From contig JBFMBF010000019.1 of NCBI GenBank assembly GCA_040755315.1, forward strand, positions 1 through 22,610: 22,610 bases of DNA. The letters are read 5' to 3'. How positions within the stretch are numbered: position 1 is the stretch's first letter; every line of letters begins with the position of its first letter. The notes under the pieces were generated by a model, which saw nothing but the letters and a program-made list of their open reading frames with translations, did not search any database and was not told the origin of the DNA. Below are positions 6,670-22,490 of the stretch, piece by piece. The translations under genes were made by a program, and so were the position numbers. This DNA comes from Candidatus Hadarchaeota archaeon (GTDB lineage Archaea > Hadarchaeota > Hadarchaeia > Hadarchaeales > Hadarchaeaceae).

Positions 6670-7380
6670 TTATGTTTCATGTTTTTTCAGCCGGAGCTTC
6701 ACCTCGGGGTTCTCTTCCGCCAGCCGCTTGAAAACCTCCTCGAAGCTCTCCTCGGGTGCCAGGCTCCTCTGGATGAAAACCCCCGTGCGCCCGACCTCCG
6801 CCCGCCGCCTGAGGACCTGCGCGCGCTCCCGAACTATGTCCAGACTTACACCCACCACCTTCGCCACCTCCGCCTCCCGCCCGGCAATCTGGCTTTCGAA
6901 GTGCCCCGCGGGCGTCGGCTCTATCAGCATCAACCTCTTGTCCACGCCAGGGACTCGGGCATCCTTTTCCAGCCCGGCCAGGTCAACCGCCCCCCCGAAG
7001 TGGTAAAACTCCAGCTCCATCCGCCCGGCCTTGATCAAAGGAAAAGTCACGGAAGTTTTTTCGTCAATGTAAACATGGGCCTTCGGAAGCTGCCATGGCG
7101 TGGCCATCACCAGCTCCTTCTTCCAAACTTGAAACCCAGCTTCCCGGAGGGCCAGTTCAACCCTGTATGACGGAACTTGGCCAGGTATGAAGACGTCCAC
7201 ATCGCTTTTTTCATCAACATCGCCGCGTGCAACGCTTCCATGCACGACAGGCTCAGCTCCAAGCCCAGAAATAACACCCACAACTGTCTTCGCCTTTTTT
7301 CTGAGCTCCTTCAACAGCAGCCAGCGCTTCTCCACATAGATGACTTCAGAAGCTTCACCGACACGGGCGGGCCGCACCAT
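6670..7380 (-). CDS. Archaeal pol-beta-superfamily nucleotidyltransferase (COG2413-like)
   Basis: HGSVARGDVDEKSDVDVFI. Conserved archaeal tail EFYHFGG...RVPGVDKRL...RR..VGRTGVF. Confidence 0.85.
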   Translation of the reverse strand: MVRPARVGEASEVIYVEKRWLLLKELRKKAKTVVGVISGLGAEPVVHGSVARGDVDEKSDVDVFIPGQVPSYRVELALREAGFQVWKKELVMATPWQLPKAHVYIDEKTSVTFPLIKAGRMELEFYHFGGAVDLAGLEKDARVPGVDKRLMLIEPTPAGHFESQIAGREAEVAKVVGVSLDIVRERAQVLRRRAEVGRTGVFIQRSLAPEESFEEVFKRLAEENPEVKLRLKKHET

Positions 7381-12354: not shown

Positions 12355-12463
12355 GCCGGGGTGGCCCAGCCAGGTACGGCGATAGGTCTGTAAAGACCCG
12401 CTAGAGGTTGCTAACCTATTGGCGCATCGCGCCTCAGGGGTTCAAATCCCCTCCCCGGCGCCA
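12355..12463 (+). tRNA. tRNA-Ser(GCT) with a 21-nt non-canonical intron (12384-12404, position 28/29)
   Basis: Acceptor GCCGGGG/CCCCGGC, G73, encoded CCA. Long variable arm GGCGC-ATC-GCGCC. T arm AGGGG-TTCAAAT-CCCCT. Removing the intron gives ATAGG-TTGCTAA-CCTAT. Confidence 0.9.
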
Positions 12464-12500
12464 CACTTTCGGTTCGAATCCCCAAACCTTAAATGTTAAA

Positions 12501-12518
12501 AGTAACAAAAATGTTACT
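12501..12518. promoter_or_regulatory. Palindromic operator of module 1
   Basis: AGTAACA-AAAA-TGTTACT lies between the TATA-like TTAAAT (12489-12494) and ATG 12531. Confidence 0.7.
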
Positions 12519-12530
12519 AAAGGGATATCC

Positions 12531-13409
12531 ATGTTGGGAATAAAAAACACGATCTCGAAAGGGACCGTTGAGCTGAGGAAATTCGGAGGCGAGAACTACC
12601 CGTATCTCAAGGTGACGTTGGGCAGGCTCGTCAAGCGGGGCGCTGCAGTCAAGGTTCGGCGCGGGGTGTACTTCATCCCATCTCCGGAGAACGTTTCCAA
12701 GCTACAGGCTTTGAGGGAAAACCTGGCCGTTTACCAAATCGTGAGATCGATCTATTCGGAATTCCACCGCGACCTGAAGCTTGTTCTCCTTTACGGTTCC
12801 TACGCTAGGGGTGATTTCGACAAGAAAAGTGATGTGGACGTACTGGTCGTCGCGAAGCGGGGGGCAAAGGATTTGGCAAACAGGTTGAGCAAGCAACTTG
12901 GTCTGAGGGTCGACATCCGGGTCATCAGTGAATCCTATTTCAAAAGGCTCATGGTGGTTGAACCCAAAGTTCACTTTTGGTTGAAGGAGGGACTCGTGTT
13001 TGACGAGGCGGGGGTCACAAAGGAAGTTTACCCGGTCGGAAAAATCGGCATCTACGAAGCGCTCAGGAGCGCCGAACTGCAGCTCGAACTTTCGAGAGCT
13101 GCCGACACCTCATCCAAAAAAGGCTATCATCTTCTGGTCGCGCTGAGGGAACTCCTCACCCTGAAGCACGCGCTTGGTCTCGATTTTGACTACAGAAACG
13201 TTAAGGAAGAGCTGGCTGAGGTGGCCGGAAGAGGAGCGATAGAAAAGCTCAGGGGGCGGGGAAAGTCCAGCGTGACCGGAGGGGAGTTGCACAGGTGGAA
13301 GTTGTCGGCTGAAAAATTATATCTGGGCCTGAAGCGTGTGTACGGGAAGCTCGGGGAAAGTATTGGAGATCTCTACGTGAAGAAACTGGTGAGGCATGAA
13401 CATGAGTAA
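12531..13409 (+). CDS. wHTH + minimal nucleotidyltransferase (MNT) + C-terminal helical domain protein (module 1, large gene)
   Basis: LGRLVKRG...VRRGVY (AbiEi-like wHTH wing). LLYGSYARGDFDKKSDVDVLVV...RVDI (MNT). The upstream ORF extension overlaps the tRNA, so the start is set at ATG 12531. Confidence 0.85.
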   Translation: MLGIKNTISKGTVELRKFGGENYPYLKVTLGRLVKRGAAVKVRRGVYFIPSPENVSKLQALRENLAVYQIVRSIYSEFHRDLKLVLLYGSYARGDFDKKSDVDVLVVAKRGAKDLANRLSKQLGLRVDIRVISESYFKRLMVVEPKVHFWLKEGLVFDEAGVTKEVYPVGKIGIYEALRSAELQLELSRAADTSSKKGYHLLVALRELLTLKHALGLDFDYRNVKEELAEVAGRGAIEKLRGRGKSSVTGGELHRWKLSAEKLYLGLKRVYGKLGESIGDLYVKKLVRHEHE

Positions 13410-13707
13410 AACGAGGGATGCGAGGGCGATAAGCAACCTGCTGGGAAACTCGGCAGCGCACTACGCGCTCTACGGCGGGGAGCAGAGGGAGATCGGCGTG
13501 TACACGGAGCAGGCGGAGGACCTGGCGAGAGAGAGGTCCTGGAACCAGAGGGATCGCGAGGCCATCAAAGATTGGGCGATGAGGCGGGCCCGGAGCGAGA
13601 TCCGGCAGAGGGTGCCGTTGCTGGGGATTGACGAGAGAGAAGAGGAACACTATCTCGGGAAGGCGGAAGAGTTCATAGACAATTTCATGGGGTCAAAATT
13701 GGGCTAG
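13402..13707 (+). CDS. Uncharacterised ~101-aa helical protein (module 1, small gene)
   Basis: Overlaps the upstream stop and follows a GGTGAGG ribosome-binding site. Full-length paralogue at 17112..17426. Alternative start at 13396. Confidence 0.85.
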   Translation: MSKTRDARAISNLLGNSAAHYALYGGEQREIGVYTEQAEDLARERSWNQRDREAIKDWAMRRARSEIRQRVPLLGIDEREEEHYLGKAEEFIDNFMGSKLG

Positions 13708-13933
13708 CCGGCTGGTTTATTGGCGGGAGGTACAGAGAAATATTGGCGAACGTACGATTAGTACTTTAACTACGGAGCCTTTCAGGTGGGCTTTTCTAAT
13801 TTCGTTTCGAACCTCATCGGCAGTTCTTCCAAGGGGGCAAATTCTATAATAAAAGGGAGCCGAACCAAAAGGGCGATTCCCTTCCCCGGCGCCAGCCCTT
13901 TTAGCCCTCCGCGAGCAATTGTCATGGTGAACC

Positions 13934-15088
13934 ATGCCGGAAGTCCCATCCCTCAGCGGCCGCGTGATATTCCAGTACCTTTACGACGTCGGCGGCGACA
14001 TCGACATTTCAAAAATCTCAAAGGAGAAGTTCAGCCCCATCGAGCGCCCCAGGGTGAGGGGAGAGCGTCTTCTCGCGCCGAAGTACGAGGAGGTCGGGCT
14101 CGTCCCGCTGGAGGTTGACCTCGGCTCCAAAAAAATAGACAAGTACCAGACCACCTTGGAGGGCAGGATTTTTCCCATCGGCGCTGTAGGAGTTTACATC
14201 TCCGTTGAGTTCCGCAATCTCACTTTCGATGGCCTGATAAAACTTGTAAACCTCAACGACGGGAAGGTCAAATTGGGCGGAAAGGAGGTTGAGTTCGACG
14301 AGGTTCCGCGCGAGTTTTTCCAGCAGCTGCGCGGCTCCATAAAGTCCGCAATCCAGTACCCATATCAATTTTTGGAGCACCCCCAGGTTTACACCCTTGT
14401 CCTGATAGCCGAGTCCGACCCGAGGCTCGACGCTGATGATTTTTTGACAAAGTTCAAGAAGCAGACGGCTGGGGTCCTTCGCGGGGAGAAAAACTGGCGC
14501 TCCCTGAGCCAGAAGGAGGTGGACGACGCCATCAAGCCATACCTGAGCTACTCGGAGGGGGACGTGGTGATTGTCGACTGGTACTCCGCCCTCATCAGCG
14601 GCGCGGTGGAGTACACGGACGACTTGGTGAGGATGATAGAGCTTGCGCTTGTCCAGCTGCTCGAGCTCAGGACATACGACCGACTCCTTGACGTCAGGGC
14701 CCAGCGGGCCTACGACGGCCTGCGCGCGGTCTTCAAGAAGCCGAGCCTCGGGATCTTCTGGAAGGGCCGGGCTTACGGGGAACTGACGCGCGCTACCCGG
14801 GAACTGGCCGAGGCCAGGATAGAGATAATGGATTTCCTTGAGGACGCCCGCAACATCTCGAAGCTCACGGGGGAGTGGTACTTGGGCAAGCTCTACCGCA
14901 TGGCGAGCGAGCGCTTCCGCATCCCCGAGTGGCTTGCGCTTGTGGACAGGAAGCTCGACCAGCTCCAGGAGCTTTACTCCATCTCCGTGGGAAGAATAGA
15001 CACACAGCGGCTCCTGACGCTCGAGGCGCTCATCGTCCTGCTGTTCGTCATAGTGCTGGTTCTGGACATCCTCATTCTGGTGAAATGA
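13934..15088 (+). CDS. RMD1/DUF155-like protein with C-terminal TM helix
   Basis: LSYSEGDVVIVDW.SA, IELA..QLLELRTYD..LD, GEWYL.KLY..ASERF.I.EW...VDRKL, LE.LIVLLF. Family assignment is from memory of the pattern. Confidence 0.6.
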   Translation: MPEVPSLSGRVIFQYLYDVGGDIDISKISKEKFSPIERPRVRGERLLAPKYEEVGLVPLEVDLGSKKIDKYQTTLEGRIFPIGAVGVYISVEFRNLTFDGLIKLVNLNDGKVKLGGKEVEFDEVPREFFQQLRGSIKSAIQYPYQFLEHPQVYTLVLIAESDPRLDADDFLTKFKKQTAGVLRGEKNWRSLSQKEVDDAIKPYLSYSEGDVVIVDWYSALISGAVEYTDDLVRMIELALVQLLELRTYDRLLDVRAQRAYDGLRAVFKKPSLGIFWKGRAYGELTRATRELAEARIEIMDFLEDARNISKLTGEWYLGKLYRMASERFRIPEWLALVDRKLDQLQELYSISVGRIDTQRLLTLEALIVLLFVIVLVLDILILVK

Positions 15089-15122
15089 GCGCAGCTTTTA
15101 TCGGGCCGCGCAGATTTCCATT

Positions 15123-15195
15123 GGGCCCGTGGTCCAGCGGTTAAGACGCTACCCTTACACGGTAGATATCGAGGGTTCGAATCCCTCCGGGCCCA
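15123..15195 (+). tRNA. tRNA-Val(TAC), intronless
   Basis: GGGCCCG/CGGGCCC, A73. Anticodon arm CTACC-CTTACAC-GGTAG. T arm GAGGG-TTCGAAT-CCCTC. Only CC of CCA is encoded. Confidence 0.97.
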
Positions 15196-15398
15196 CCTCT
15201 CCAGCAGTGAATTTCCGAGGACGCGACCAAGGCAAACCTCGTCTACAATATCTGTCCGAGTTCCTGGGCGCGGTGATGTTAATACAAGACCATCATGAAA
15301 CGTTTGTAGAGCAAAGCATCCATGCCGTGGGCTGTCCGTCGAGTGTCAAGAACTCGTGCGCAGGTGTTACTAATGCTTAGTCCTAACCTTGTCGTGGC

Positions 15399-15932
15399 TC
15401 AGCTTGGTTGGAATTCTGAATCAGGGATTGACGGGTTCACCTGAATGTTGTAAATCCTTACTGTCGAACCAGTGGTTGGGTCGGTGTAGGTGTATTCACC
15501 TGTTCCAGTCCAGCCAGCCAACTGTGTAGTGTACGTTTGTGTCATTGCGGTGTAGGTTTCGGGGCTGATGTAGCTTGACATGTCTTGCCAGCCTGTCTCT
15601 GCCGTCCACATCCATGTTTTACTGGCGCCAGAGTCCACGATTACGCTGCTTGTGGTACCCGCCACGGTCATGTCCATTCTGAGCTTTGCGGTTGATTGCC
15701 CGATGTTTTTCATCTTTACAGTAGATGTCAACGACTGGCTCTGATAAGTTCCGTCCACGTTGAAGCTCAGACTGGTTGCAGTAGAAACATTGCCGCTGGT
15801 AGCGGTGCTCCCCCCTCCACCACCGCCTTTCAGGACCAAGAAGCCGCCGACGCCAGCCGCCGCGATGATGATCACTATGAAAACTCCCACGCCAGCCGAA
15901 ATTGCAACCCCTGCTGATTCTTTTCTCCTCAT
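15399..15932 (-). CDS. Membrane-anchored extracellular protein, LolA-like beta-rich fold
   Basis: N-terminal TM helix, Gly6/Ser/Thr linker, KLRMDM...VIVD....TWMW and terminal NIQVNPSIPDSEFQP. Confidence 0.65.
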   Translation of the reverse strand: MRRKESAGVAISAGVGVFIVIIIAAAGVGGFLVLKGGGGGGSTATSGNVSTATSLSFNVDGTYQSQSLTSTVKMKNIGQSTAKLRMDMTVAGTTSSVIVDSGASKTWMWTAETGWQDMSSYISPETYTAMTQTYTTQLAGWTGTGEYTYTDPTTGSTVRIYNIQVNPSIPDSEFQPS

Positions 15933-16033
15933 TTTTTTACCTCCATTTTAAATGAACCCCGCGCCTAATAAACCACACTGATGGCGGCCGCCCATCGAGC
16001 ACGATTTTAAGACAGCGGGTGATGGTAAACTGT

Positions 16034-16150
16034 GCCCCGGTGGTGTAGCCCGGTCAAGGAGAAAACCTCCGCCGAAATCATACAGCCCTTTCGAGCTCGA
16101 TTGGGCGATGAAAGGCTGCGACGCGGGTTCAAATCCCGCCCGGGGCACCA
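16034..16150 (+). tRNA. tRNA-Glu(TTC) with two introns (16057-16076 in the D loop, 20b/21; 16094-16112 at 37/38)
   Basis: The spliced form GCCCCGGTGGTGTAGCCCGGTCAATCATACAGCCCTTTCGAGGCTGCGACGCGGGTTCAAATCCCGCCCGGGGCACCA folds as a normal archaeal tRNA-Glu. Both inserts form BHB-like motifs. Confidence 0.92.
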
Positions 16151-16156
16151 CAATAG

Positions 16157-16182
16157 GTTAACAAAATCGTTAACTTTATAAG
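16157..16182 (+). promoter_or_regulatory. Palindromic operator plus TATA box of module 2
   Basis: GTTAAC-AAAATC-GTTAAC (16157-16174) directly abuts TTTATAAG (16175-16182). Confidence 0.7.
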
Positions 16183-16212
16183 TGTTGCAATGAAGTGTAT
16201 TTTGGTGTCGAG

Positions 16213-17115
16213 ATGAAACCCTACTTGAGGCTCTGCGAGGGGCTTTCCGGGTCAAAGTTTACATTAGCGGATGCACGAAAAGCGCTGGGTGTCCAACCAA
16301 GTTCGACAAAGGTTATCCTCTCTAGACTGAAGAGCGCCGGGCTGATCCTGCCAGTTGGTCGGGGCAGGTACAGGCTAATTGGGCGGGAAAATCTTGCAAA
16401 GCTCCAAGAGATTAAGGAGCGAGACAAGAAGATGTACCAGCTTGTACTGGGAGTCTATCAGAAGTACCATGATTTAAAAGCGCTCGTGCTGTACGGCTCC
16501 AGAATCTCCGGCACCGCAGATGCATTCAGCGACTACGATGCGATGGTGATAACGGATGCCATCCACGACAGGAGTGATAACAAAAAGATTGAGCGCGAGC
16601 TGGCGGAGGAACTCGGAATCAAGGTTCACCTGGCCGTCTACTCCAAAAGGGGAGTCATGATCTCCGCCATGACCGAGCCGCACCTCAAATTTTGGATGAA
16701 CAACGCTGTGGTGCTGGCTGAAGACAGGTGGCCAACGCCCCTTCCGCCAACCGCGAAATGGGGATACAAAGAGGCGCTGTACATGGCAGAGGGGTATATT
16801 GACGTTGGCGGCGAAGATCAAGGAAGCTTTAGGGTTACTTGTTACCTGTTAGCGCTGAAGCTGATACTGATGGTCGAACACGCGCTTAAACTGGATTACG
16901 ACTATGAAAACGTGCGGAAGGAAATGGAGTATCTGGTAGGCAAGAACACCGTTCTGGCCGTGAGAAGAGACCACCTTTCACCGAAGGGCGTGAGGAAAAA
17001 ACAAATCGAGAAGCTGGGGAGAATCGTGCGAAAAAGGTTGAAGGAGTTGAGAAACAAGCTCGACCTGATTGGGGAGAACGAGTCAGACCTGCGATGGAAG
17101 GAGATGAGGGGATGA
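16213..17115 (+). CDS. wHTH + MNT + C-terminal helical domain protein (module 2, large gene)
   Basis: FTLADARKAL...KVILSRLKSAG...VGRGRY. VLYGSRISGTADAFSDYDAMVI. Collinear with 12531..13409 (EP...FW, K.G..EAL, HAL.LD[FY]DY.NV..E, GE...DL). Confidence 0.85.
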   Translation: MKPYLRLCEGLSGSKFTLADARKALGVQPSSTKVILSRLKSAGLILPVGRGRYRLIGRENLAKLQEIKERDKKMYQLVLGVYQKYHDLKALVLYGSRISGTADAFSDYDAMVITDAIHDRSDNKKIERELAEELGIKVHLAVYSKRGVMISAMTEPHLKFWMNNAVVLAEDRWPTPLPPTAKWGYKEALYMAEGYIDVGGEDQGSFRVTCYLLALKLILMVEHALKLDYDYENVRKEMEYLVGKNTVLAVRRDHLSPKGVRKKQIEKLGRIVRKRLKELRNKLDLIGENESDLRWKEMRG

Positions 17116-17426
17116 GCAGAAAAGATGACATAAGAAGGATATCAAGTTTTGTGGGGAACTCCGCGGCACACGTCGCAATTTACCGCGAGGGGGCTGAAAA
17201 AGAAGTCGGTACATACATGGAGATTGCGTCGGAGATAGCGGAAAAGAGGACATGGAACGAACGAGAGATTGAGGATTTTAAAGAACTGGCGACACGGCGG
17301 GCGAGCAGCGTGTTAAAGGAGCGAATCAAGAGGGGAGACCTCGATGAGAAAGAGTTTGACGGGACCCTGAAAGGTGCTCGAATATACATCGATAAATTTG
17401 CGGACGAAGAGCTTTCTAGGAAATAG
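17112..17426 (+). CDS. Uncharacterised 104-aa helical protein (module 2, small gene)
   Basis: ATGA start/stop overlap with the upstream gene. Shares GNSAAH.A.Y, E.G.Y.E.A, R[ST]WN.R, A.RRA.S and ID.F with 13402..13707. Confidence 0.85.
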   Translation: MSRKDDIRRISSFVGNSAAHVAIYREGAEKEVGTYMEIASEIAEKRTWNEREIEDFKELATRRASSVLKERIKRGDLDEKEFDGTLKGARIYIDKFADEELSRK

Positions 17427-17513
17427 GCATCCATTGTTGTGTGTTATGAGATTCAAGCGAAAGGCGGAGCCCATCCAAGGCGTCGGGCCTCAGGGAAATG
17501 CTGGGTTTTGAAA

Positions 17514-17591
17514 AACGAGCGGGAAGAGGAACGATATCTGAAGAAGGCGGAGGAGTTCATCGACAATTTTGTAGGCTCGAAATTGGACTAG
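17514..17591 (+). pseudogene. 3' remnant of a third copy of the small module gene
   Basis: Encodes NEREEERYLKKAEEFIDNFVGSKLD*, 20/25 aa identical to the C-terminus of 13402..13707. The 5' part is missing or eroded. Confidence 0.85.
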
Positions 17592-17875
17592 ATGTTTCAA
17601 GCGATCCGGTACACCCATGTCACTTTTTTAGACCAGACGTGATACAGTATTTGGCGCAGGCAACCGCCTGGGAAACAGCAGGTGCACCGGATGAAAGCCC
17701 GCGGCGGACCAATGCGGCTCAGACCGCTCAGACCCCCTCAGGGGGGACGCTCCGGCTTGCGGCTATACCTGCGCCTTGTGGTGGCAAGGTCACCTCGCCA
17801 CGCTATGCACGCTGATATCGCTGGGGAGATAAGGCAGTACACGAAAGTAGGTTGTGTGGTCAGTTGGTGAATGAG

Positions 17876-19423
17876 ATGAAAAAGGTTGGCAGGAACGATC
17901 AGTGCCCCTGCGGGAGCGGCAGGAAGTACAAAAAGTGCTGCCTGCCTAGGGAGCGGGCCGCCGGGGCCGGTGCAGGATTACTACACGACTGTCTGGGGCG
18001 AATGACTGATTGGATTTTCAGCAACGAGATGCTGGCGGACGAGTTCAGATCCGTGGCGGACGATTTTATGCGGGACAGCCCCCTCGATGAATTCGGGATG
18101 GCATTGCTCTCTGACGCTTTCATTTTCGACCACAAACTACCGGGGAAAAACATGACTCCGTTCGAATTTTTCATGGAGAACGCCCAGCTGTCACCCGACG
18201 AACGCTCGGTCTACGAGGGTTTCTCTAGGAACACCCACAGCATCTTTGAAATCCTCGAGGTGCGGCGCGACGAGGGCCTCGTGCTGAAGGATCTCATCGG
18301 CGAGGGGGAGTACTGGGTGAAGGAGAGGAGGGGGACACATGGTGCCGCACAGGGCGGCATCGTGTGCTGCAGGATCGCGCCGTATGGGGGCCATTTCATC
18401 ATGTTGGGGGTGGGGACGCTGTCGTGGCCCCGGGACGTGGGATATCTGTTCAGGCGAGGTTCGAGATATCTCAGAACCAAGGCGAAGGAACGCCCTCTGA
18501 CCGCTTTCGATGCGCTGAGGCTCCTGACGGGGATGGAATCCAATGAGGAGGAAAGCTTGGAAGACGCGAAGGATGCGCTGAAACGGAAGCTGGACCGATT
18601 GGGGCTGAAGGTGGATTTTCGAACACTTGCGAAGCGCATCAACGAATCCAAGAACCCACAGGAGGCCTTCCCAGAGATTTTCGAGTTTGATTTCCTATCC
18701 ATGCGGGACTTTCAAGAGACGATGGACCTACTGCAAGACCTCTGGAACAAATTTCCCCGGCGCGAGTTCGGCGGCTTGGCACCCTCCGCGAAGTTTCAAC
18801 CTGGTCCAAAAGAGAGCATGCTATTCCAGACCCTTTTAGCGGAATCGCAAAGGAGCATCGATCCCGACAAGTACCCAACGGCAAATGACGCGCAAAAAGC
18901 TGTTAATGAGTTCAGCGATAAATGGCTCAAGACGCCGCAGGAGGAGTTGGGGCAGAGAACACCCATGGACGTGATTTTAGAGGAAAGGGCGGCACTGGGG
19001 GACCCAAGAAAGGAGTTCGGCATGCAAATTCAAATATCCCGGATCCACGATTATGATGTCAACAAGGCCAAAAAACTTTATCGCGATGGCCTTGAGGCGT
19101 GTAAAAGCGGCGCTTGGTTCAAGGCAATGGAATTTTTTGAAGAGGTGACAGAGATGTATCCTGAACACTATAAAGCTTGGGGAAACCTCGGCAGCTGTCA
19201 CGCTAATCTCGGATCCAAGAGGGATGCAATCAAGTGTTACAAAAAAGCACTGTCAATCGAGCCGAACTATGAGGTCGCCAAAAGGAATTTGGCTGCCATC
19301 AAAGATGCAAAAGAGGAAGACTTGGCGATGCTTGGGTTGGCGAGAACAATAAAAGGTCTTCAGCGATCAATGAGCGCCAGAAGATCTGGGCGAAAATACA
19401 AACGTGCTGAAAACAATGAATAA
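17876..19423 (+). CDS. SEC-C motif + Xre/MbcA/ParS-C-like motif + TPR protein
   Basis: KVGRNDQCPCGSGRKYKKCC. WLKTPQEELGQRTPMD. TPRs AWGNLG..H..LG...DAIKCYKKALSIEPNY. GGTGA ribosome-binding site before ATG 17876. Confidence 0.8.
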   Translation: MKKVGRNDQCPCGSGRKYKKCCLPRERAAGAGAGLLHDCLGRMTDWIFSNEMLADEFRSVADDFMRDSPLDEFGMALLSDAFIFDHKLPGKNMTPFEFFMENAQLSPDERSVYEGFSRNTHSIFEILEVRRDEGLVLKDLIGEGEYWVKERRGTHGAAQGGIVCCRIAPYGGHFIMLGVGTLSWPRDVGYLFRRGSRYLRTKAKERPLTAFDALRLLTGMESNEEESLEDAKDALKRKLDRLGLKVDFRTLAKRINESKNPQEAFPEIFEFDFLSMRDFQETMDLLQDLWNKFPRREFGGLAPSAKFQPGPKESMLFQTLLAESQRSIDPDKYPTANDAQKAVNEFSDKWLKTPQEELGQRTPMDVILEERAALGDPRKEFGMQIQISRIHDYDVNKAKKLYRDGLEACKSGAWFKAMEFFEEVTEMYPEHYKAWGNLGSCHANLGSKRDAIKCYKKALSIEPNYEVAKRNLAAIKDAKEEDLAMLGLARTIKGLQRSMSARRSGRKYKRAENNE

Positions 19424-19681
19424 AAGACCGCTGGTGTACGGACCGGGACAGGTGGGTCTTGGGGGTTCTGAGGAAAGATGAACGATAACCGCAGAGGCGG
19501 ACATCCGTGTTTCGGTGGATGATAAAAGTCTGGCGGCGGATTTACAGGAGTGTGGAAGTGGAGAATTTCTAAAGCCTCTGCTTGAGCTTCCAAAGGGGGC
19601 AAAATAAAATCTTGGTCCGCCATGAAACTAGTGGAATCTTTTCTTTGAAAACCATCAAGAAGCACACGGTTTTTGAGAGGG

Positions 19682-19704
19682 CTTTCTACTTTTCCCACCA
19701 TCCC
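19682..19704. repeat. Internal copy of the island right-end arm
   Basis: CTTTCTACTTTTCCCACCATCCC versus CTTTCTACTTTTCCAACCATCCC (22390-22412): 22/23 identical, both preceded by AGGG. Confidence 0.9.
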
Positions 19705-19751
19705 ACGAAAGGATATTAAACGGCCGCAATAACTTTAGAAAGGAGATAGAA

Positions 19752-20291
19752 ATGGCAGAAATAATCGAGATTAAAAAGACCGAGCTTGACAGAGAATTCA
19801 GGCGGAGAGTTGGAATGCTGCTGGACTCCGCCGAGAAGGAAGTGGCAATCATCACGGGCGAGGGCGCCGCGTTCGGCTATTACGACCTGAGGCTCGCGAC
19901 GGAGCGCGCGGTTGCTCGGGGCGTAAAAGTGAGAATTTACACCACCAACCCCGTCCCAGAATTTCTGAACAAGGTTATGATGCTGGGCTGCAAGGTCTAC
20001 CGCGGGAAGGAGATGACGAAAGACCATTTTATGGTGGCCGACGGGAAGAACTGGGCGGTCTCAAAGGCACACCCCCCTAGAGCGATCGGCGTAAGGCACG
20101 GGCAGGTCAGCCTCGGCGACAGAGGGGGTGCAGAAAAGGTTCAGAAAGAGTTCGGCCGCCTCGCCAGTAAGGCCGAGGAAGTGAAGGAGCCGATGTGGGA
20201 CGAGGACCCGCTCGTCCAGGCGCTCCGGCATCCAAAAAGCTGGGGCGTAAAAACCGACTCAAGACGGTTCAGGGAAGAACTGTACAGGTGA
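19752..20291 (+). CDS. Degenerate PLD-fold (TrmB-like) protein with antitoxin-like C-terminal tail
   Basis: LLDSAEKEVAIITGE, AVARGVKVRIYT, DHFMVADGK (HKD motif degenerate). AAGGAG ribosome-binding site. Confidence 0.65.
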   Translation: MAEIIEIKKTELDREFRRRVGMLLDSAEKEVAIITGEGAAFGYYDLRLATERAVARGVKVRIYTTNPVPEFLNKVMMLGCKVYRGKEMTKDHFMVADGKNWAVSKAHPPRAIGVRHGQVSLGDRGGAEKVQKEFGRLASKAEEVKEPMWDEDPLVQALRHPKSWGVKTDSRRFREELYR

Positions 20292-20731
20292 GCTTCTTGA
20301 AGGTTCTGATAGACGCCGGGCCTTTCATCGCCCTCCTGAACAAGGACGACCCGAACCACCAAAACGCCGTAGAGCAGTTCGACAGAATATACTGGACAAA
20401 GGGGATTTGCTTCACGTCAGACTATGTGCTGACCGAGGTGCTGGCGTACGCCACCAGGAAGACAAAAAGTCCGGAAGTCGTACTGGAGATGGACAGGCTC
20501 ATACAGGGAAGCGGGAACATCCACATGCTGAAGGTCGACGGGGCGGCGCTCGGGGACGCCAAGGCGTTTTTGAAAAAATACCCCAAGTTGCTCCTCTCCC
20601 TGACTGACTGGACATCAATCGCGCTGGCGGTGGAACACGGGATTGGAAAAATATACTCCTACGATTCCGATTTCGACCAGTTGATGTCGACTCCAGAGTT
20701 CAGGCACATCAGGCGCGTGGAAGAGATTTAA
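20288..20731 (+). CDS. vapC: PIN-domain ribonuclease toxin (VapC family)
   Basis: VLIDAGPFIAL...D.NH, TSDYVLTEV, LSLTDWTSIALA, IYSYDSDFD. The GTG start overlaps the upstream TGA (GTGA). Confidence 0.9.
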   Translation: MSFLKVLIDAGPFIALLNKDDPNHQNAVEQFDRIYWTKGICFTSDYVLTEVLAYATRKTKSPEVVLEMDRLIQGSGNIHMLKVDGAALGDAKAFLKKYPKLLLSLTDWTSIALAVEHGIGKIYSYDSDFDQLMSTPEFRHIRRVEEI

Positions 20732-20773
20732 CGTGACGGCGCCACACCATTGGTTCGCGCGCCGCATCGAAGA

Positions 20774-21121
20774 TTATTTGCGTTTCCATGTAAATCGGCA
20801 TGTGTCTGACTTGTGGTAGCGCATTTCACCAGTTAGAGTGTCTGGGGCAGTCAAAGTTGCGATACCAAATCCGTGGACAGGATCCATCTCATCATTCCCC
20901 TCGAAAGTGAATGTAATTCGAGACGCCCCGTTTTCTGCGACCTCCACTTTACCATCCAATTCGCCTGATTGAACGCCGAATTGGTAGGTTCCATCAACCT
21001 CTCCCGTTTTAGAAACTTTGAGCAGCACGTGGGGGTCTGGTGTCAGATGGATGTAATCTTCAGACAAATCTGGCAGCTCCACGACGCGCCATTTGCCAGT
21101 TAGTGTTTTCTTTCCACTCAT
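20774..21121 (-). CDS. Hypothetical all-beta (lipocalin-like barrel) protein
   Basis: LTGKWRVVE...GTYQFG...ITFTFEGNDEMDPVHGFG.A.L...DTLTG...H..D...F. ATGA-coupled to the upstream gene. Confidence 0.7.
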   Translation of the reverse strand: MSGKKTLTGKWRVVELPDLSEDYIHLTPDPHVLLKVSKTGEVDGTYQFGVQSGELDGKVEVAENGASRITFTFEGNDEMDPVHGFGIATLTAPDTLTGEMRYHKSDTCRFTWKRK

Positions 21122-22275
21122 TGTTGTCCTTCTTTGTGTGGTATCATCAAATAATCGGGTGACCGCTCTTGCCTGAATCTCTCCCCGCCCTTGAAAAAGT
21201 CCCTCAGGAACTCCAGATAGTCCCGTCCGTGGCCCTGCTCCCTGTGTCTTTTCACGGAGTTCAGGACGTGACTTATGCACGCCGAAACCTCGCCTTTCGT
21301 GTAGCGTAGACCCGACAGCCTGAAAATCTCCAGCTTCAGCCCCGTGATGAACCTCCGCTCGAGTTCGTTTTTACCCTCGTAGTCTTTCCAGATCCCGTCC
21401 CTCACGTTCTTCAGGAGTTCCATCACGTCTCCGTCCCTGAGCGACTGGTTTTCCTCATACTCTGTGAAGATCAGTTGCTCTATCGAGAACAGGAGGGGCA
21501 GGTATTCTCCCCTGTGGCTGTCGTCTATTATGGGTCTTGGTCCATCTGGCACGAGTTCCGCGGGGCTGGAGTCTAGTAGTCCCCGAAGCATGAATGTGGC
21601 CCAGAGCTCGTGTTGCTTCATGTCTCTTTCCCTCATTTCTCTTTGGTAGCCGTCTTTGTCGGTTATGAACTTGTGCAAGTCCTTCAGACCAAGCTTGCTG
21701 GGCCTAGTAAGGTTCTTCAGCCCAAGAAGTCGCTCCACCATCCTAAGCGAGCTTTCCTTCTCCCCGGTACTCACCAGCAACCAGACAAAATGGGCCAAGT
21801 CGAACCAGCGCTCGTAGCGGTCCTGATTAGCCGAAAAATCGTTGAGGATTTTTTCGATGAACTCCCTTGCCCCACGCCCGTTGAGCGCTTCGACCAGCCA
21901 GCGGTTGTACGCTTCTTTTCCGAAGTCTTCCTCGAGCGCCCTGATTACAGGGGTGGTGGCTGGGTCCCCAAAATCGAAAAGAATGCTCGACGCCTCCTCA
22001 CAAAGATCATCCTCGTCGTTCTTCACCAGAAACTGGATCAAGGGCGGGATGAACCTCTCATCCCTCGACATCCAAATCATCCTGAGAATCAATTCGAGGA
22101 CGGAATAAGAGGAGGATGGATCGGCGAGTATCTGAGAGAGCGGCCCCATAGCCGCGTCCACGTGGTTCAAAAACTCTGAGATTAACTCATGCTGCACCCG
22201 TTCGATTTCGCCCCAGGGCTTTTCTTCCGACAGCGCCTCTATGTTTTTCAGTTTCTCGAAGTCTAATGACATCAC
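21118..22275 (-). CDS. Hypothetical helical protein with HEAT-like repeats
   Basis: 385-aa ORF. DERFIPPLIQFL....DDLCEEASSIL..FGDPA..PVIRAL is HEAT-like. Start at GTG 22275 or ATG 22272. Confidence 0.7.
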   Translation of the reverse strand: MMSLDFEKLKNIEALSEEKPWGEIERVQHELISEFLNHVDAAMGPLSQILADPSSSYSVLELILRMIWMSRDERFIPPLIQFLVKNDEDDLCEEASSILFDFGDPATTPVIRALEEDFGKEAYNRWLVEALNGRGAREFIEKILNDFSANQDRYERWFDLAHFVWLLVSTGEKESSLRMVERLLGLKNLTRPSKLGLKDLHKFITDKDGYQREMRERDMKQHELWATFMLRGLLDSSPAELVPDGPRPIIDDSHRGEYLPLLFSIEQLIFTEYEENQSLRDGDVMELLKNVRDGIWKDYEGKNELERRFITGLKLEIFRLSGLRYTKGEVSACISHVLNSVKRHREQGHGRDYLEFLRDFFKGGERFRQERSPDYLMIPHKEGQQ

Positions 22276-22490
22276 TGACCACTATTCCTCTTCCCCGATA
22301 AGTATCTTCTAGGGGGCAGTGCGAACGCAAGTGCTGGGAGCTGGCCACATCAGACGTGTTAATGAGATTTGACTGCCGCTGGGCAGGGACTTTCTACTTT
22401 TCCAACCATCCCGCCCGGGGCACCAAACTAGACCGGTAGTTTAATAAGTTATTTAGTTATTTATTTATATAGAATACGGTGGCGGTGTGA

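Follow-up and report, generated by a model that had tools for sequence, protein, structure and literature searches.

We analysed positions 1 to 22,610 of contig JBFMBF010000019.1 (GenBank assembly GCA_040755315.1, forward strand), a 22,610-nt stretch from a Candidatus Hadarchaeota archaeon that we refer to as the window. It carries two collinear, diverged gene pairs, each composed of a large gene, whose product combines a winged helix-turn-helix (wHTH) with a minimal nucleotidyltransferase (MNT) domain, and a downstream gene for a small, charged protein of 101-104 aa (Table 1). A sequence-only reading of this DNA had proposed the pairs as a toxin-antitoxin (TA)-like system; we found all four open reading frames (ORFs) where it had placed them, in the translationally coupled layout it described, with the large and small ORFs overlapping by 8 nt in pair 1 and through an ATGA in pair 2. 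The large proteins P0001 and P0003 share 32% identity over 234 aa (E 1e-32), and the small proteins P0002 and P0004 share 41% over 102 aa (E 3e-25). Because the copies belong to different supported subfamilies, the two pairs were probably acquired separately, and their separate supported clades, in a tree with few columns, rule out a recent local duplication. The source assembly (1.21 Mb, 87% complete) contains these two pairs only, plus one relic of a small gene that is 81% identical to positions 13631-13707 (83% over 24 aa by tblastn). We found no description of the pair in the literature searched, where a mention in a supplementary table remains possible.

Table 1. Features of the two gene pairs and their insertions in the window (AF2, AlphaFold2; domain limits of P0001 are residue numbers)
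Feature	Positions	Strand	Description
Large gene 1 (P0001, 292 aa)	12531..13409	+	Pfam NTP_transf_2, E 1.5e-10; AbiEi_4 below cut-off
P0001 domains	wHTH ~11-55; MNT ~65-160 (G89 S90 D101 D103); HEPN-fold bundle ~170-273; C-terminal helix		AF2 model and fold matches
Small gene 1 (P0002, 101 aa)	13402..13707	+	Four-helix protein; invariant H20, E30, Y34
Large gene 2 (P0003, 300 aa)	16213..17115	+	wHTH-MNT-HEPN-fold, second subfamily
Small gene 2 (P0004, 104 aa)	17112..17426	+	Second subfamily; supported clade differs from that of P0002
Relic 3' end of a first-subfamily small gene	17499..17591	+	Out of frame through a 4-nt insertion
Operator-like palindrome GTAAC-N6-GTTAC	12502..12517	.	Just behind a TATA-like AT-rich stretch
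Operator-like palindrome GTTAAC-N6-GTTAAC	16157..16174	.	Directly ahead of TATA-like TTTATAA
tRNA-Ser(GCT)	12355..12463	+	21-nt intron in anticodon stem; integration target of islet 1; Rfam
tRNA-Glu(TTC)	16034..16150	+	Anticodon-loop intron and D-loop intron; integration target of island 2; Rfam
Right-hand direct repeat of tRNA-Ser 3' end	13876..13894	+	Single copy at empty sites
Right-hand direct repeat of tRNA-Glu 3' end	22408..22425	+	Single copy in G031
Islet 1 (1.43 kb)	12464..13894	+	Promoter, pair 1, right-hand repeat; absent in G030 and G031
Island 2 (6.27 kb)	16151..22425	+	Absent with clean junction in G031

Homologues of the small protein number 77 at 90% clustering, with 44 representatives at 50% (two of these, long proteins, were left out as chance matches), and their hosts span Hadarchaeota, Micrarchaeota, a third archaeal phylum, Bacillota, and Anaerolineae. 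A large gene of the family lies directly upstream in 37 of 40 small genes, a count from which same-contig duplicates (L018, L033, L050-L060, L094-L096, L098, and others) were left out; a false pattern match, L034, was dropped. The other three small genes stand at contig starts with at most 164 nt of upstream DNA, and the linkage to the nucleotidyltransferase gene that had been put forward as a check on the system thus holds at every locus where an upstream gene could show. The genomes that carry the large gene are also those that carry the small gene, 6 of 66 in the source phylum and 6 of 301 in a Micrarchaeota-phylum sample, where a contig break splits one pair. Searching from the large gene gave 21 loci, comprising 13 full-length family members and 8 short ordinary MNTs without a small gene; the small gene follows 12 of the 13, and the remaining one ends at a contig edge. 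Pairwise distances among the large proteins track those among the small ones (Spearman 0.80, 29 pairs), a correlation that shows no more than joint inheritance. A locus scan with P0101 found no locus. The distribution is very patchy, the surroundings of the pair range from SMC and topoisomerase I genes to TA clusters, and neither a third gene nor a pathway context is conserved at the loci. At one locus (L011:414-7698), a TA/defence cluster surrounds the pair and also contains AbrB-PIN, AbiEii, a BglII-like nuclease, and a separate HTH-like MNT gene.

Both pairs sit in real insertions of 1.43 and 6.27 kb, because sister genomes retain clean empty sites with a single repeat core: the flanks of islet 1 are joined through one core in G030 and G031, two other genomes of the genus, and the island 2 site in G031 has a clean junction. 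The insertions are bounded by tRNA-derived direct repeats, as had been noted from the sequence, with 17 of 19 nt shared between the tRNA-Ser 3' end (12445-12463) and its right-hand copy and 18 of 18 for tRNA-Glu (16133-16150). Each pair also begins within 70 bp of the tRNA CCA, with CCA-to-ATG gaps of 67 and 62 nt. The two tRNAs score 39.9 and 42.1 bits against the Rfam tRNA model (cut-off 29) and were missed by default ARAGORN because of their introns; the labels given by ARAGORN -i (Tyr for the first and Arg for the other) were ruled out by comparison with the sister genomes. The first has a long variable arm, shares its 3' end exactly with two other tRNA-Ser genes, and has a G030 orthologue with a GCT anticodon; its intron limits are our reading of the bulge-helix-bulge fold. 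This intron lies in the anticodon stem in the source genome and G031 and in the anticodon loop in G030, and its position thus varies within the genus. The 20-nt D-loop intron of tRNA-Glu is missing from the G031 gene, which is otherwise identical, so it was probably gained or lost recently.

No integrase was detected by Pfam among the scanned ORFs of either insert, and no carriers were found among viruses in IMG/VR (queried with the archaeal alignment) or plasmids in PLSDB (queried with one bacterial member). At homologous loci, no tRNA lies directly upstream of the pair (45 locus scans in sets of 20, 7, and 18, some overlapping, with 5 tRNA matches; intron-rich tRNAs and contig ends may hide some). 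The nearest of these lie ~0.2 kb downstream of the pair (L016/L017) and 0.9 kb upstream of it (L017). The proposal that the pairs spread on tRNA-targeted islets therefore stands for the source genome, where the empty sites bear it out; targeting of tRNAs as a trait of the whole family was ruled out. The patchy spread, the variable neighbours, and the empty sites in sister genomes fit a mobile module, and we conclude that the pair is a real, rare, and previously undescribed one.

The small protein has no consistent match in Pfam (74 members), NCBIfam, PADLOC or PHROGs (48 members), or PDB sequences, in keeping with the earlier statement that it belongs to no recognised toxin family. Its AF2 model (P0002) is a four-helix bundle with a predicted local distance difference test score (pLDDT) of 92. 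No fold match reached E 0.001 in PDB or BFVD, and such nulls prove neither a differing fold nor a new one. HEPN and other named folds were considered and gained no support, the top 50 rows of the fold searches containing no HEPN entry; the RX4HXY motif is likewise missing from the small-protein alignments, and none of the 74 members matches a HEPN family in Pfam (PF01934, PF08780, PF05168). DUF29 (PF01724) likewise gained no support, with hhalign probabilities of 0.3% and 0.1% against a 20-sequence DUF29 alignment and no Pfam match, and stays a weak lead (ESM Atlas 0.84-0.88; 3fcn, Z 6.1, root-mean-square deviation [rmsd] 3.4, 92 aligned). Among 48 diverse small proteins, H20, E30, and Y34 are the sole invariant residues, followed by G15 (47), A18 (44), N48 (42), W47 (37), R62 (36), and R70 (32). 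The four motifs first used to describe the protein are present in both window copies, but GNSAAH and WN are conserved only in the near family.

For the large protein, the AF2 model of P0001 (pLDDT 86) comprises a wHTH, an MNT domain, and a helical bundle; in Pfam, NTP_transf_2 and Polbeta exceed the cut-off, which AbiEi_4 does not reach. The tail, previously described only as helical, can be refined to a HEPN fold: VIA-align matches it to Csm6 (Z 10.0, rmsd 2.8, 102 aligned), 2hsb (Z 8.7, 3.1, 103), sacsin (Z 8.4, 3.3, 106), 3o10 (Z 8.4), and 1ufb (Z 8.0), values that are modest for helical bundles, but many HEPN entries agree. The GSx10DxD signature reported for both window copies is present in 28 of 29 complete large partners, the 29th having a two-residue insertion, and YGS and SDxD are invariant in 22 of 22 aligned large proteins. 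An R-x4-6-H motif is not conserved in the tail, being missing in window copy 2 and in 11 of 28 tails scanned, and elsewhere it lies mostly in helix 2. We take the canonical HEPN RNase motif to lie later in the domain than helix 2. The description of the large protein as an AbiEi-like wHTH, an MNT, and a tail fits both window copies, but the wHTH proved optional across the family (230-390 aa): six bacterial copies lack it, and two archaeal ones (L091:378-1896, L092:817-2314) apparently have it twice. The latter two represent a distant form, whose enzyme is longer and whose small protein has a basic N-terminus and a C-terminal extension. The small protein was also considered as a copy of the large protein's tail, which was ruled out (hhalign 0.2%).

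Whole-chain fold comparisons brought up the Hailong system, the Foldseek order for the large model being HalB (E 1.1e-6), then aminoglycoside nucleotidyltransferases (ANTs) and MntA. Hailong is a two-gene nucleotidyltransferase/effector operon with tyrosine-primed synthesis (PMC13434031). By analogy, the large protein might make a template-free oligonucleotide that inhibits the small effector until a viral nuclease or nucleotide depletion frees it. We consider such a guard quite unlikely: HalB comes second in VIA-align (Z 9.9, rmsd 4.2, 172 aligned) but is tied there with HEPN and ANT matches, the score against the HalB hidden Markov model (HMM; NF051895) is 26.4 bits versus a cut-off of 190 and reflects the motif only, the small protein looks soluble and bears no relation to HalA, which is a membrane protein, and the complex model described next favours direct protein contact.

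Modelling of the pair as a complex, which had been proposed as a check, favoured interaction, with a score of 0.68 for the large and small proteins compared with 0.00 for the best of three controls. As a rough guide only, with our own alignments used, 116 of 157 solved complexes also reached the mark that this pair did, as did 2 of 215 mismatched pairs; runs shared at least 85% of contacts, with partner pLDDT of at least 83. In the model, the small protein contacts HEPN helix 1 (171-192), residues 130-146 beside D128, and the C-terminal helix of the large protein, with E176 touching H20 and the 23-34 loop of the small protein in the interface. No solved complex of the small family exists among PDB sequences; MNT-HEPN complexes do. 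As a prediction, the model supports physical binding of the two proteins.

The same features could describe a non-toxin, an autoregulated two-subunit nucleotidyltransferase of the KNTase/ANT/GlnE type, with the small protein as specificity subunit or regulator and a small molecule or host protein as substrate. Its MNT plus HEPN-like layout matches ANT(4'), AadA, ANT(9), LinB, and GlnE (Foldseek E 1e-5 to 2e-3; Z 6.5-9.6), HEPN domains fused to MNTs are mostly inactive and domesticated into modifying enzymes (PMC3710099), the conserved residues of the small protein point to the partner in the model, and most loci lie outside defence islands. We nevertheless judge it unlikely, given the patchy mobile distribution, the regulator-first coupled layout typical of TA modules, the lack of a conserved third gene or pathway context, and the retention of two diverged copies in one genome.

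The promoter regions contain a shared palindrome with the 14-bp core TAAC-N6-GTTA, which has two exact sites in the window, one ahead of each pair (0.07 expected), and six sites in the whole genome. At 21 loci whose large gene bears a wHTH, a set including some near-duplicates, the palindrome is exact in 14 and has one mismatch in 7, compared with 0.4% and 7.3% of shuffled upstream regions. It is also exact in 7 of 7 further Micrarchaeota-type loci (L050-L054, L100, L101), and all six bacterial loci without a wHTH have at least two mismatches. We infer that the wHTH of the large protein may autorepress the operon at this palindrome, by analogy with AbiEi (PMC7319586), and the conserved element lends support to the autoregulation suggested in the sequence-only reading.

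The reading that we prefer, to which we assign a probability of about 50%, is that the large protein acts as a repressor-antitoxin: its dead HEPN domain would dock the small protein, which the enzyme would nucleotidylate in the way known for MntA and HepT. In that precedent, MntA adenylylates HepT at Y104 and needs GSx10DxD (PMC7641770). What we infer for repression, polarity, transfer of a nucleoside monophosphate (NMP), toxicity, and target is as follows. The module would work like a type VII (enzyme-antitoxin) TA system whose partner protein is new and not a HEPN. The large protein may be an MNT/HEPN pair fused into one chain, in which the HEPN part no longer has a conserved RNase motif and has become a docking domain. 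HEPN helix 1, together with the strand and helix flanking the nucleotidyltransferase pocket, would bind the small protein, and NMP, probably AMP, would be moved onto one of its tyrosines, with Y34 the first candidate, rendering it inactive. The wHTH would repress the operon at TAAC-N6-GTTA. The small protein would be the costly partner, for which we guess a metal-independent RNase-type site formed by H20, E30, Y34, R62, and R70.

Evidence on polarity comes from one Bacillota class, in which the small gene occurs in 4 of 162 genomes and is damaged in three of the four. In L035, its 3' end is replaced past approximately residue 84; in L036, a metagenome-assembled genome, it has a frameshift near residue 65; and in L049, the start codon is lost and an early stop is present. 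The large ORF and its GSx10DxD motif are intact in all three. In the fourth genome (L089), both genes are intact and the partner has diverged. The 40-gene linkage count contains no broken large gene ahead of an intact small gene. Because the small gene is damaged beside an intact enzyme in three bacterial genomes, these loci suggest that the small protein is the toxin and the large protein the antitoxin; they argue for an enzyme that is harmless alone and a small gene that is costly or dispensable.

Under the reverse polarity, the nucleotidyltransferase would be the toxin, modifying tRNA or protein in the manner of MenT/AbiEii, and the small protein would serve as its type II antitoxin by plugging the enzyme. 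The modelled docking of the small protein beside the active-site strand, the tRNAs adjoining the genes in the window, and the inhibition of MenAT1 through antitoxin binding (PMC10435456) would all suit this arrangement. It is distinctly improbable, however: in addition to the damaged small genes next to intact enzymes, the enzyme matches Pfam NTP_transf_2/Polbeta, with no AbiEii (PF08843) match at E 0.1, the DNA-binding domain is carried by the large protein, and the tRNA adjacency is explained by integration sites and is not conserved in homologous loci. The option of a tRNA-modifying enzyme toxin, which the sequence-only reading had raised, is disfavoured on the same grounds.

Returning to the repressor-antitoxin reading, its fuller form would place the small protein in a new family of toxins or antiviral effectors, without an assignable fold but with a His/Glu/Tyr/Arg site. 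A domesticated MNT-HEPN enzyme, whose dead HEPN docks the toxin, would nucleotidylate it and so switch it off; this form we put forward tentatively, at clearly less than even odds. Several observations weigh against the repressor-antitoxin reading. Fold matches of the small protein are middling and unrelated, the best (Z 8.4) being to membrane-helix bundles, with no recognisable catalytic fold. The invariant H20 and Y34 lie in the modelled interface, and binding alone could explain their conservation, while G89, S90, D101, D103, and D128 are not among the model contacts, and an active-site tyrosine is thus not placed. Many large proteins carry R-x6-H in HEPN helix 2 (R206 in 15 of 22, H213 in 16 of 22; not window copy 2), and subfamily 1 has D at the third acidic position, where subfamily 2 has H. 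The palindrome is missing at the two distant double-wHTH loci, is found at one of eight unrelated MNT loci, and occurs as a 5-nt-spaced variant at L089, which has no wHTH. Most loci lie amid housekeeping genes, with defence or TA neighbours only at L011, L016/L017, and the window. The polarity sample is small, with three genomes of which one is metagenome-assembled, and fits a merely dispensable partner too.

Beyond pair 2, island 2 contains the small-gene relic, a structured element, a SEC-C/TPR gene, an ORF with a PIN gene, and two further ORFs. A 26-nt repeat (92%; 19679-19704 and 22387-22412) runs into the right-hand tRNA-Glu repeat and suggests that the island may be a tandem of two insertions. 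The 179-aa ORF, which has no Pfam match, overlaps the PIN-domain gene (19752-20731), forming a second TA-like pair in the island. The structured element (17653-17776; ~125 nt) is conserved, with an 8-bp closing stem and no Rfam match even at E 5. It is present in 4 of 46 related genomes, all among the five pair-bearing genomes of that sample, and does not adjoin the pair outside the source genome. Its consensus fold from four sequences has 34 pairs, 2 with two-sided changes, and it is possibly a mobile-element end or an unclassified RNA. At islet 1, a short extra copy of a tRNA T-loop sequence lies directly behind the tRNA-Ser CCA (12471-12482) and is perhaps a scar of an earlier integration. 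Elsewhere in the window, a 384-aa gene (13934-15088), whose product has a hydrophobic helix at its C-terminus and matches nothing in Pfam, keeps its place between tRNA-Ser and tRNA-Val in the two sister genomes, and a third nucleotidyltransferase gene (6670-7380, minus strand; NTP_transf_2, E 1.4e-8) belongs to another family and has no small partner.

In the literature cited here, the MNT antitoxins described all act on HEPN RNases. If the fuller form of the repressor-antitoxin reading is true, the pair would provide an MNT antitoxin whose target is a toxin other than HEPN, in a system common to archaea and bacteria. A partner that is strictly linked yet not of the HEPN kind would broaden the type VII systems and add a new small effector family. 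The pair may also be a concrete case of the proposed MNT-HEPN domestication (PMC3710099), caught with a new partner. In the window, such modules have entered tRNA genes of an uncultured archaeal phylum on islets without an integrase.

Among known systems, type VII HepT/MntA (PMC7641770; PDB 5yep, 7ae2) shares the upstream GSx10DxD MNT, a coupled small downstream partner with a conserved tyrosine, a mobile two-gene layout, and a direct complex, which is predicted here. It differs in its partner, which here lacks RX4HXY and a HEPN family match and is modelled as four helices with middling, unrelated fold matches, and in its MNT, which here shares one chain with a HEPN-fold domain and, in most cases, a wHTH (230-390 aa versus ~110-140); against single-domain MntA (NCBIfam NF047752), these three-domain proteins score 33.5 and 30.6 bits, below the cut-off of 60. 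The archaeal PDC-M05, or class II (PF05168-type), wHTH-MNT and HEPN pairs (PMC12988326) have an M05A HMM that matches the wHTH-MNT region (E 2.6e-9 and 8e-5), and the modelled tail resembles class II-type HEPN folds (2hsb, 3o10, 1ufb); here, however, the HEPN is fused into the enzyme, and the downstream place is held by a third, unrelated protein with no consistent PADLOC match. FhepTA (PMC13000451) likewise combines MNT and HEPN in one chain on mobile elements, but it is a single gene with an active HEPN RNase, whereas the pair has no conserved RNase motif, an added wHTH, and an obligatory partner gene. Hailong HalA/HalB (PMC13434031; PDB 9dbh, 9dbj) shares a similar nucleotidyltransferase plus helical-bundle fold and a two-gene operon with a possibly restrained effector; the pair differs in scoring far below the HalB cut-off, in having a wHTH and operator, and in its partner, which is not a membrane channel and has no HalA or PADLOC match. 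AbiE/MenAT (PMC3985639, PMC7319586, PMC10435456) shares an AbiEi-like wHTH, below cut-off here, and a promoter inverted repeat, but its DUF1814 nucleotidyltransferase toxin is separate from the wHTH antitoxin, whereas here the wHTH and a Pol-beta-type MNT are in one protein. The pair is thus distinct from FhepTA, PDC-M05, Hailong, and AbiE/MenAT by the features that define each, and its closest parallel is type VII HepT/MntA, which it resembles in its proposed way of working yet to which, with a partner that does not match HEPN and a fused enzyme, it does not belong.

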